Shown: positions 6,238-7,920 of the stretch, one piece after another | Layout of the letters: each line of letters starts with the position of its first letter | Numbering within the stretch: position 1 is the first letter of the stretch | DNA from: Candidatus Omnitrophota bacterium | GTDB taxonomy: Bacteria; Omnitrophota; Gorgyraeia; Zapsychrales; JANLHA01 | Direction: 5' to 3' | DNA: 32,000 bases | Assembly: GCA_963662715.1 (NCBI GenBank) | Contig: OY759724.1 | Location: 780,001 to 812,000, forward strand | Position numbers and translations under genes: made by a program | Notes under the pieces: model-generated | Told to the model about the DNA's origin: nothing | What the model saw: only the letters and a program-made list of their open reading frames with translations | Databases searched by the model: none

Positions 6238-7920
6238 TTAGTGTCCGCTGCTGACACAAGCGCCGTGACAGGCGCCATGGCATGCGGAATGACATGCCGA
6301 ATGGCATGCGGAATGACACGCCGAATGACATGCGTCATGACAGACATTCTGCAAAAACGGCCCTTCATAACAGACGGCCGTATTCCGGAAGGAGGAGAAG
6401 CCTTCCTTCACCTGCGGCAGACTTTGTTCAAACGAACGTCCGACGTCCTGGCTGTTTCGGTAATAATCCCGGTCATGATAATAGGGACGGCCGTGATAAT
6501 GGTCGTAATATCCGTCCCAATAATGACTGTGATCTGTCTCTTGACGGGAAAGGCTTTTTTCTCTCTCCAGATCTTTCTGCATCCGCTTCTTATAATAAGC
6601 CTTCGTGGCTTCCAGGTCGCAGTCCCAGGCCTTTTGTTCAACTCCGGCGGCTATCGTGTGAAACAGATCATTCACATATGACTGCGGAATATCCCCATAC
6701 ATATCTATGGCCGTAAAAAGGTTGTTCTCATAAGGGTCTTCACTGCCGGTCGCCGCCGGGACCCGTTCGAGCTTTAAGGGATCACGGCTGATGACATGAA
6801 TCAGCCCTTTCCGTTCCAGGTTCTGAATCATGAGCCCCGCCAAAGTCCCCAAGGGAAGATCTAAGAGCAACCCGGCTTCAATGGGCGTCAGGGTCTTACA
6901 GATTTTCCCTTTCTTGCGAAATGATCCCAGCTGGATTTTGGGAGGGGTCCATTCCTCTCCATCCCATTTGATAGGATCAATACCGTCCTGGGCCGCCAGC
7001 ATGGAAATATGTTTCCGCGTCATAATCAAGAAAGGGACCCCCATCAGGACCACCACGGACAAAAGAATAAAAGATATAAGCCCTCCAAAAGACAGCGGCA
7101 CAACCGACAGAACACTGCCGGGGAAGAAGCGGTTAAGAATGTATTTTTCTTCGGCCTTTTGGAATCCCGGTGTTTCGGCCCAGGGCCGGGCCGGGGCCAT
7201 TGTCTGCAGATTAAAATAGGACGCATCCAGATACGTTTGTATCTGGAAATGATACCGTTTTTGAAGGTTATTCCGGTGGAAACGGACGGTCAGGACATTC
7301 TCTCCGCTGGCATTCTCTGCGGTCGGGTAGTCGATAGAGTACTCTCGGTTGACATATTTTTCCGTCATGAATTTCAGAGACGACAAAAGATCGGACGTGA
7401 CTTCTGAGCCGGTCAAGACAACAGGGTAATGGACCGTCACGGTTTGGTGATCCAGGGCATCGCTCCACTGCACCGGCGCCCAGTTCAAAACAGCCAGCCG
7501 GCCGTGATCACTCTCTGTTTGGGTGACATTCCCGCTCTGCTGCAGATCCGTTTCGTAGTGAAAAAAGTACGTGATGTCCCCGTCATGGAAAGCCTGCCCG
7601 TTGGCGAGGATGATATCATATTTGCCGGGGGAAAGGTATTTGATCTCTAAAGGGTACTGCCTGCCGGACTGATCAACGGCAAAAGCCTCATCATAATTAA
7701 AGCGGGGTGTCCCGGCAAAACCTTCGAAATAAAAACCGTGAAGATTGGCGGAGTGGCAGGACCAGCGTACAGCGTAGGCCACCTGCGCTTTGCCGTCCTG
7801 GTCCAGGACCAGGTCAACCTCAGCCCAGCGCATTTGAAAATGACCGGCCCATAGCGGTGAGGCAAACACGCACAGGGAAAGAACAACGAGGAAAGAAAAT
7901 AATATTTTTTTTCTAAACAT
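6238..7920 (-). CDS. DUF2207-like membrane protein (signal peptide, extracytoplasmic domain, TM region, cytoplasmic domain) ending in an (A-C-H-x)n Cys/His repeat tail
   Basis: Signal peptide [25 protein letters not shown]. N-domain motifs ([17 protein letters not shown]...LHGFYFEGF) and the post-TM [11 protein letters not shown]...LERKGLIHV resemble DUF2207, from memory. Hydrophobic stretch at about 7021-7128. C-terminus reads ...[36 protein letters not shown]. I prefer the start at ATG 7920 over the track start at 7950, because the -10 box at 7952-7957 would put the TSS downstream of 7950. Confidence 0.85.
   Translation of the reverse strand: [560 protein letters not shown]
6256..6342 (-). 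repeat. Coding tandem repeat: seven CHxA tetrapeptide units plus a terminal Cys (12-nt period; two 24-nt copies 23/24 identical at 6279-6326)
   Basis: Minus-strand codons: tgt cat gac gca / tgt cat tcg gcg / tgt cat tcc gca / tgc cat tcg gca / tgt cat tcc gca / tgc cat ggc gcc / tgt cac ggc gct / tgt. Confidence 0.95.

Follow-up and report, generated by a model that had tools for sequence, protein, structure and literature searches.

A Cys/His-periodic tail of an Omnitrophota membrane protein as a candidate multi-site substrate of the neighboring radical SAM/SPASM enzyme

In the genome of a Candidatus Omnitrophota bacterium, a predicted membrane protein ends in a tetrapeptide repeat of Cys and His residues, and the question raised by this locus is what such a tail is for and whether the gene beside it acts on it. 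The locus lies in a window of 32,000 nucleotides (nt), the whole stretch of DNA that was analyzed (contig OY759724.1 of assembly GCA_963662715.1, positions 780,001 to 812,000), in which gene A, encoding the membrane protein of 570 amino acids (aa), is followed on the minus strand by gene B, encoding a radical S-adenosylmethionine (SAM)/SPASM enzyme, and by gene C, encoding a further predicted membrane protein. The best explanation of these three genes is that they form one operon making a post-translationally modified membrane protein, in which the tail of protein A is rather likely the substrate of enzyme B, modified once per repeat unit by a cross-link of whichever chemistry.

The C-terminus of protein A (open reading frame (ORF) 6238..7950, minus strand) consists, in translation, of seven C-H-[D/S/G]-A units and an eighth Cys, and the gene ends in a TAA stop codon at nt 6238-6240. 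The first-pass annotation of this DNA had counted eight Cys and seven His with a period of four, followed by VSSGH and the stop, at 6238-6345; both the count and the coordinates (35 codons plus the stop) are exact by translation, and the additional Cys that it had placed 10 residues upstream is C527, located ahead of C537. The elements of this region are the following:

6256..6342, minus strand: repeat core, C-(H-x-A-C)x7, residues 537-565; the proposed modification site, with its register kept in all full-length homologues.
6241..6255, minus strand: C-terminal cap VSSGH-COOH, conserved, with the family consensus C-V-S-G-G-x-H/R.
6343..6408, minus strand: pre-repeat motif, residues 515-536; a candidate recognition sequence for the recognition element (RRE) that enzyme B shares with maturases of peptides made on ribosomes and modified after translation (RiPPs).

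Alignment of the A homologues gives the pre-repeat motif the consensus F-x-x-F-[RK]-x-[ST]-x-x-C-Y-[ED]-G-x-F, in which C527 never varies, and related [DN]-[YF]-x-x-F-[MLI]-x-S motifs precede the repeats in other A subfamilies. Outside the tail, Cys and His make up only 0.7% and 1.9% of the residues of these homologues, respectively. At the level of DNA, a degenerate pattern of three units occurs five times, in overlapping positions, in the window and in none of 100 dinucleotide-preserving shuffles. The units vary synonymously (TGT/TGC, CAT/CAC, GCA/GCG/GCC/GCT), and Tandem Repeats Finder reports a 12-nt period with a match of just 76%, together with a 24-nt period; the synonymous differences and the 76% match therefore indicate that the periodicity is held at the protein level and not only by recent DNA slippage.

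The degenerate DNA pattern, requiring three perfect units, was also scanned over one genome per species and gave at least 120 matches. Among the first 120, approximately 75 are in-frame tails, all located at the extreme C-terminus of proteins of 500-950 aa, and every tail locus with enough upstream sequence encodes a homologue of A, five loci starting inside or just before the tail. Approximately 45 of these matches were discarded as out-of-frame or GC-rich chance occurrences (such as ACHRACHR in actinobacteria). Generic low-complexity sequence, a concern raised in the first-pass annotation, is not what this search revealed, since the pattern is confined to one family with conserved neighbors. 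Among the matches listed, the carriers span more than 15 phyla, including Thorarchaeota as the archaeal carriers and, on the bacterial side, Omnitrophota, Planctomycetota, Anaerolineae/Chloroflexota, Myxococcota, Spirochaetota, Acidobacteriota, Aminicenantes, Kiritimatiellae, Verrucomicrobiia, Gemmatimonadota, Gammaproteobacteria, Nitrospiraceae, Clostridia, Hydrogenedentota, Sumerlaeota, and Abditibacteriota; one carrier, Desulfobulbus alkaliphilus DSM 24258, is in culture, its A homologue lying at 2169-3887 of locus L115, from the first 8 kb of contig NZ_JAFFQC010000005.1, and the closest to the window protein among the matches listed are two Omnitrophota loci (L094 and L097). A profile of A searched against 1.84 billion cluster representatives (50% identity) retrieved 674 sequences at E <= 1e-3 and 154 at E <= 1e-30, with the tail present in nearly all full-length matches. 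A word-indexed search yielded 19 A homologues, the full-length ones all ending in (CHxA)n-C-V-S-[SGA]-G-(x)-H with n from 2 to about 9; compared with the hundreds obtained from the DNA-pattern and profile searches, these 19 relatives severely underestimate the family, probably as a result of the low-complexity tail having swamped the word candidates.

Most tails (64 of 78) have 7 or 8 units, and the variable position of the unit is occupied by Ser in 81% and by Asp in 13% of the units. In register statistics based on 73 unique tails, Cys is located at His+3 in 598/610 cases and Ala at His+2 in 594/610, with Asn in 5 more, and Cys directly precedes His in 560/610 cases. The Cys-Cys spacing in the tails equals four in 567 of 652 intervals. 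As only sequences with three perfect units could match the scan, overall regularity is inflated; the argument from irregular units, however, uses positions that this condition does not cover. All 38 irregular His-containing units carry their insertion between Cys and His and keep H-x-[A/N]-C (for example CVHDAC, CVSHDAC, CVHSNC, CYVHTAC, and CFTHSAC), the His-to-Cys distance being lengthened in none of them. Tyr replaces His in 8 units (CYSAC), aromatic-x-Gly-Cys units (C-[FY]-x-G-C) are common upstream (21 cases), and His, Tyr, or Phe stands at Cys-3 in 645 of 753 cases. Because the irregular units keep H-x-[A/N]-C and extend only the gap between Cys and His, the conserved unit, as judged from these sequences, is H-x-A-C (aromatic-x-small-Cys) and not C-H-x-A. 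The Cys/His register on which the first-pass annotation had relied is conserved in all full-length orthologues, and its choice of C-H-x-A as the unit is better replaced by H-x-A-C.

Several variants of the tail occur. Archaeal loci (L013, L014, L061, L091) and Anaerolineae/Chloroflexota loci (L010, L020, L022, L023) share an irregular architecture, in which CHSA blocks are broken by CV(S)HDA and a CV-CHSA junction, and these idiosyncratic sequences suggest transfer between archaea and Chloroflexota. In one protein of the representative library (P0260), the tail shifts from CHxA to C-D-S-C-H-S-S units (…CDSSCDSCHSSCDSCHSSCDSCHSSCDSSCVSDV), which may represent a subfamily with a different unit. 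A distant DUF2207-like homologue from Anaerolineales (P0019; L130, 3134-4806) carries a different Cys-repeat tail (...CACACACAGCACACAG / ...SSCACACACAGCACACAG), its contig ending inside the gene. At locus L121, an ACH-stop-ACH arrangement that invited the idea of selenocysteine proved to be a false positive, being a perfect 12-nt repeat (CTGCCACTGAGC, 3060-3158) that encodes PATE in the open frame.

Gene linkage connects the tail to enzyme B. The order A, B, C is kept in six of six metagenome contigs, whose flanking genes are otherwise unrelated. Of the 51 genome loci in which the sequence downstream of A extends to 1.5 kb or more, 43 carry a B homologue (266-775 bits) immediately after A and in the same orientation. 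In the window, the GTG start of gene C overlaps the TGA stop of gene B (GTGA), and B is apparently translationally coupled to its neighbor. The features of enzyme B are as follows:

4892..6223, minus strand: gene B, radical SAM/SPASM enzyme of 443 aa, starting 14 nt past the stop of gene A.
5909-6223, minus strand: N-terminal PqqD-like RRE, residues ~1-105, assigned through Pfam PF05402 on homologues.
C122/C126/C129, minus strand: the radical SAM motif CX3CX2C, invariant in 51/51 homologues.
Cys 337, 351, 369, 408, 411, 417, and 421, minus strand: the SPASM Cys residues, all seven likewise invariant in the 51 homologues, including CX2CX5CX3C.

In Pfam, B matches Radical_SAM (PF04055, 3e-29) and SPASM (PF13186, 34.2 bits against a cut-off of 21.5). 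PF05402 is the top Pfam match for the N-termini of all 8 diverse B homologues searched, and in 4 of the 8 it lies above the gathering score of 23.4 (38.6, 38.1, 30.6, and 28.0 bits). The best solved relatives found with the B profile are SkfB (3.5e-32), PqqE, TigE, SuiB, CteB, and anSME, TigE (PDB 8VPO) aligning from the RRE to SPASM at 1.3e-20. Against NCBIfam, B and nine homologues from different phyla reach no model at cut-off: the best models for B, AhbD and NirJ2, score 135-160 bits against 500 and are generic, the ACGX-repeat radical SAM model TIGR04340 gives 85.7 bits against 400, and the StsB model gives 81 bits against 625, which places B outside that thioether-synthase family. A mechanically called ORF (4892..6331, minus strand) extends B upstream through the tail in another frame (MSFGVSFRMPFGMSFRMP...); the added segment, 6224-6331 of the window, was rejected as the true N-terminus of B, being an artefact of the periodic DNA. 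A reading of the locus as a defense system was likewise discarded, as PADLOC gave B generic viperin-like radical SAM matches only.

For protein A, the following features were obtained from an AF2 model, Foldseek, and alignment:

6238..7950, minus strand: gene A, bitopic membrane protein, 570 aa as called (AF2 model, Foldseek, alignment).
Residues 10-33, minus strand: signal peptide/anchor (AF2 model).
7225-7842, minus strand: exported beta-sandwich, residues 37-242 (AF2, confident).
7018-7089, minus strand: single transmembrane (TM) helix, residues ~288-311 (AF2 and alignment).
Residues ~345-466, minus strand: cytoplasmic winged-helix and helical domain (AF2 model).
6421-6543, minus strand: Tyr/His/Asp/Arg-rich low-complexity linker, residues 470-510, preceding the candidate recognition motif; homologues are similarly aromatic-rich.
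7952..7980, minus strand: promoter-like site TAGACA-17-TATAAT, a consensus match only (11 of 12 positions).

Since a signal peptide is followed by an exported domain and then by a single TM helix with TRKH after it, the predicted topology is N-out, C-in, with a cytoplasmic tail that would be within reach of B, radical SAM enzymes being active in the cytoplasm. The mean predicted local distance difference test score (pLDDT) of the model is 72, and Foldseek relates the N-terminal domain to M1-aminopeptidase domain I and ribophorin I, as a generic beta-sandwich only. In three homologues (P0010, P0012, P0013), the TM segment comprises 20 aa. The true start of A is probably M11 (nt 7920), as the promoter-like site would put the start of transcription after the ATG at 7950, which fits M11 together with the alignment of homologues. 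The window protein gave no Pfam match even at E 10 and none at NCBIfam cut-offs, and PDB sequence searches with A and with C were empty. The label "DUF2207-type" given in the first-pass annotation is accordingly not borne out for the window protein itself; the link is remote and runs through homologues below threshold, with PF09972 (DUF2207) at 24.1 bits on P0012 against a gathering score of 24.4 and at 13.9 on P0011, faint precomputed DUF2207 matches on P0003, P0017, and P0018, and TIGR04222 at 23.8 bits against a cut-off of 43. The general plan of A resembles that of DUF2207/TIGR04222 ("near_uncomplex") proteins, with an exported beta-sandwich, a TM helix, a cytoplasmic domain, and a low-complexity tail. 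Typical DUF2207 tails are rich in Gly and Ser, sometimes also Cys, and we know of no enzyme partner described for DUF2207 proteins.

Taken with the linkage in 43/51 and 6/6 loci, the PqqD-like domain and the predicted cytoplasmic location lend strong comparative-genomic support to the proposal of the first-pass annotation that the tail is a substrate of the neighboring radical SAM enzyme, the modification itself being what we infer from linkage and domain content. An RRE-bearing SPASM partner, a motif ahead of the repeats, a cytoplasmic location, and a fixed four-residue unit together point to a substrate of a RiPP-type radical SAM (RS)-SPASM maturase. In the mechanism proposed here, protein A would be inserted so that its beta-sandwich is outside the cell and its C-terminal half is cytoplasmic, enzyme B would dock through its N-terminal PqqD-like RRE on the conserved motif just before the repeats, and it would then move along the tail, introducing one intramolecular cross-link per H-x-A-C, seven in this protein and 7-8 in most relatives. 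The favored, though tentative, cross-link would be a thioether in which the Cys sulfur is bonded to the beta-carbon of the His (or Tyr/Phe) at Cys-3, with the product remaining on protein A; as in the mechanism proposed for NxxcB (PMC9389541), the Cys thiolate would be held on an auxiliary Fe-S cluster and the 5'-deoxyadenosyl radical would take a beta-hydrogen, the sole difference being an aromatic acceptor (benzylic position) in place of Asn. A thioether is favored because Cys is as conserved as His, because Gly rules out a C-beta cyclophane in the aromatic-x-Gly-Cys units, and because an aromatic acceptor would give a stabilized benzylic radical. Modification of the tail by B in some different manner has a slim chance. 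The six metagenome contexts revealed no conserved gene for a protease, an exporter or transporter, or additional tailoring beside the triad, so the tail would most likely not be cut off, and the product would instead be a rigid ladder of small rings at the inner face of the membrane, displaying 7-8 imidazoles together with thioether or thiol sulfurs and probably serving as a metal- or partner-binding module.

Known enzymes provide precedents for the individual steps. NxxcB forms a beta-thioether within N-x-x-C, between Cys and the residue three positions upstream, with the thiol, in the proposed mechanism, activated on an auxiliary cluster, and GggB forms the four-residue sactionine rings of streptosactin (PMC9389541). 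NxxcA/NxxcB and streptosactin resemble the proposed H-x-A-C system in having an RS-SPASM enzyme, a Cys donor, an acceptor three residues away, and small unnested rings (PMC9389541), whereas their products, short peptides that are secreted, have one or two rings, in contrast to 7-8 tandem units on a membrane protein. The acceptor in A would be His, Tyr, or Phe, unlike that of NxxcA, and a place for B in that enzyme family finds no support at cut-off. A Cys donor with an acceptor at fixed spacing, as in sacti- and ranthipeptides, has its counterpart in the A tails (645/753), with SkfB and CteB being only distant solved relatives of B. The modification of each copy of a short tandem motif is also known for RS-SPASM enzymes, TvgB acting on TVGG and TigE on TIGSVS (PMC10878394). 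The TvgA/TvgB and TigB/TigE pairs resemble the present one in combining an RRE, RS, and SPASM enzyme with a tandem-motif substrate, although their chemistry is cyclopropane formation on Val/Ile, dependent on a GYW motif of the enzyme (PMC10878394), and their precursors, unlike A, are approximately 60 aa long with transporters in the cluster.

The closest curated description of the tail is TIGR04117 ("Syntroph_Cxxx"; PF27846, "tSAM_targ_Cxxx_rpt"), whose targets, like A, carry Cys at every fourth residue near the C-terminus and have a radical SAM neighbor; that concept is itself a bioinformatic prediction. It is the only curated model touching the tail, at 9.3 bits for the full protein and 15.5 for the isolated tail against a cut-off of 50, so that A is not a member and the resemblance is one of kind. 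TIGR04117 targets are approximately 98 aa long (the model length is 98), whereas the tail described here is always found on A homologues of 500-950 aa; the A tail also differs in that its His and Ala are as conserved as its Cys and in the presence of the accessory protein C, which has no family. Literature searches on the CXXX repeat, on DUF2207 with radical SAM, on TIGR04115/04117, and on the tail peptide strings found no relevant paper.

Several observations weigh against modification of the tail by B, or against the thioether in particular. The RRE match of the window's own B is below threshold (13.3 bits, E 0.1), and the final canonical SPASM Cys is absent in B, an invariant Glu432 lying past the last conserved Cys, which is why the arrangement of auxiliary clusters may differ from that of thioether synthases. 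With no characterized maturase family reached at cut-off, the chemistry of B cannot be read from homology, and neither cross-link alone fully accounts for the joint conservation of Ala (His+2) and Cys (His+3). The tail has a pLDDT below 40 in the AF2 model of A, which is unreliable there. Moreover, B is not directly downstream of A in 8 of the 51 loci: four Thorarchaeota-type exceptions (L013, L014, L061, L091) have no B downstream, with B divergent upstream in L013 (Thorarchaeota) and the upstream side of the other three outside the fetched stretch; L025 is a second A paralogue in a metagenome-assembled genome that also has an A+B pair (L039); and L043, L085, and L120 are unexplained.

Among the other explanations of the locus, a triceptide-type cyclophane, in which B would join His-C2 to the beta-carbon of Ala within H-x-A and leave the eight Cys free as metal or Fe-S ligands, has to be taken seriously, given the 97% conservation of Ala and the occurrence of Tyr in place of His, though on the whole we consider it doubtful. 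This reaction, from His1-C2 to Ala3-C-beta, is exactly the one that HaaB performs on HAA, and multiple His motifs are frequent in triceptide precursors (PMC11499958). The triceptide synthases HaaB (HAA), HtkB (HTK), and YhhB (HNR) all connect His-C2 to the beta-carbon of the residue at +2, the Ala3 of HAA standing as in H-x-A, and the aromatic-X-X motif recurs in the A tails, as H-x-A in 594/610 cases (Asn taking the place of Ala in 5 more) and as Y-S-A in the 8 CYSAC units, where the natural swap keeps an aromatic residue at position 1; triceptide motifs, however, have no conserved Cys and lie in small peptide precursors, unlike the A tail. A cyclophane would leave the 98% conservation of Cys at His+3 unexplained and would find no beta-carbon at position 3 of the 21 upstream aromatic-x-Gly-Cys units. 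HxsC-type enzymes do appear among the generic matches of B, but far under their cut-offs (HxsC 80.5 bits against 267.9, HxsC4 97.2 against 500), which does not make B a member of these cyclophane synthases, and the 25 best NCBIfam matches of B include no further cyclophane model. The tail might otherwise be an unmodified metal- or Fe-S-binding string, with H-x-x-C pairs lined up along a single helix face and perhaps bridging two tails, and with B linked to it for another reason, such as the supply of clusters or electrons or the modification of a different substrate; this is judged unlikely. Its dense Cys/His content and i,i+3 spacing suit chelation, His-rich metallochaperone tails are a known kind, and NifU and NifS genes follow the triad in two contexts, a neighborhood that is not general. 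Chelation, on the other hand, does not need an invariant Ala at His+2 or the exchange of His for Tyr/Phe, nor does it account for the fact that, in more than 15 phyla, the tail is strictly paired with a SPASM maturase bearing an RRE. The metal-binding string that the first-pass annotation had offered as its second reading may well be the purpose of the modified tail, while taken alone it leaves an obligate enzyme partner without explanation.

An improbable variant of the substrate hypothesis holds that the tail, once modified by B, is cleaved to yield a small free peptide or cofactor rich in Cys and His, A being only a carrier or leader in a RiPP-like manner (compare PQQ and mycofactocin). An RRE combined with SPASM is typical of RiPP pathways, and the units resemble those of multi-core precursors such as TigB (PMC10878394), but the triad lacks the conserved protease, transporter, or tailoring gene noted above, protein C has no protease-like fold, and a "leader" of approximately 530 aa with invariant residues throughout argues that the whole protein functions. 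That the overlapping C-x3-C-H motifs (CHSACH) are covalent haem sites of a multihaem tail is very improbable. CX3CH is a known variant of the CXXCH motif, and the top NCBIfam matches of B are the haem-modifying AhbD and NirJ2; these matches, however, are the generic ones given above, the motifs overlap in such a way that each Cys is shared, and no cytochrome c maturation gene is conserved in the neighborhoods examined. The tail is also predicted to be cytoplasmic, whereas c-type cytochromes carry their motif outside the cytoplasm, where haem c attachment systems work. Neutral low complexity arising from slippage of a 12-nt DNA repeat, finally, is hardly tenable: the 12- and 24-nt periods of Tandem Repeats Finder and a copy number of 2 to 9 in the window protein's own subfamily speak for it, but the peptide register is kept in frame across bacteria and archaea with different codons, the copy number clusters at 7-8, the neighbors are conserved, and the out-of-frame and GC-rich pattern matches look entirely different, so that slippage is effectively refuted.

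If B does modify the tail, the consequences would extend beyond this locus. Work on radical SAM/SPASM maturases has dealt almost exclusively with enzymes that make small secreted peptides; here such an enzyme apparently serves the tail of a membrane protein of 570 aa as its dedicated substrate, and hundreds of sequence clusters from bacteria and archaea contain the system. The new features would be a full-size membrane-protein substrate, an H-x-A-C code that is unusually clean and testable (7-8 repetitions), a fixed count of 7-8, a new partner protein, and an occurrence in both bacteria and archaea. This would constitute a new class of substrate and probably a new cross-link as well, because, to our knowledge, neither His as a thioether acceptor nor a Cys-flanked His cyclophane has been described in proteins. 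It would also provide a first clue to what DUF2207-like membrane proteins and protein C do. More speculatively, and only as a tentative possibility, 7-8 His-Cys or His-Ala rings might make up a protein-derived metal or redox cofactor with multiple sites, which, as a "wire" or sensor, would couple the extracytoplasmic domain to the cell interior; this would be a new class of protein modification, in a system that ranges from Asgard archaea to at least 15 bacterial phyla and includes a partner C of apparently new fold. The cultured carrier D. alkaliphilus DSM 24258, together with a short soluble substrate, makes an experimental test straightforward.

The third member of the triad is described by a single feature:

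3948..4895, minus strand: gene C, ~315 aa, with 4 predicted TM helices and a cytoplasmic alpha/beta domain (AF2).

Homologues of C number 148, all annotated "hypothetical", with the closest named relatives in Omnitrophota. C matches no Pfam or NCBIfam family at cut-offs, with searches extended to E 10, and its AF2 model (pLDDT 92.4) retrieved nothing at E < 0.001 in a fold search; the best match, YbjN (E 0.047, TMq 0.22), is too weak for a function to be named, and the modeled fold may be new. Among the 31 loci that extend far enough to contain it, gene C is present in 20, only with tails ending C-V-S-G-G-x-H/R or C-V-S-S-G-H and never with C-V-S-x-F or C-A-G-S-F. As a speculation, protein C may bind and hold the C-V-S-G-G-x-H end of the tail.

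Around the triad, the window contains further genes:

8176-9840, plus strand: B12-binding-domain radical SAM protein of 554 aa, divergent from gene A.
3550-3870, minus strand: DUF1294 membrane protein, downstream of the triad and not conserved with it.
2509-3330, minus strand: PEP-CTERM sorting-signal protein, downstream of the triad and not conserved with it.

The radical SAM gene at 8176-9840 was considered as a second maturase and set aside, as it is not conserved in the homologous loci examined. Other neighbors in the window, including tetratricopeptide repeat (TPR), thiamine pyrophosphate (TPP)-enzyme, kinase, methyl-accepting chemotaxis protein (MCP), and rhodanese genes, are not conserved in related loci either. 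In two related contexts (the P0004 contig and L006, 10308-12375), genes for NifU and a NifS-like cysteine desulfurase directly follow A-B-C, which they do not in the other contexts; where present, they may provide a local supply of Fe-S clusters for the enzyme or the tail.

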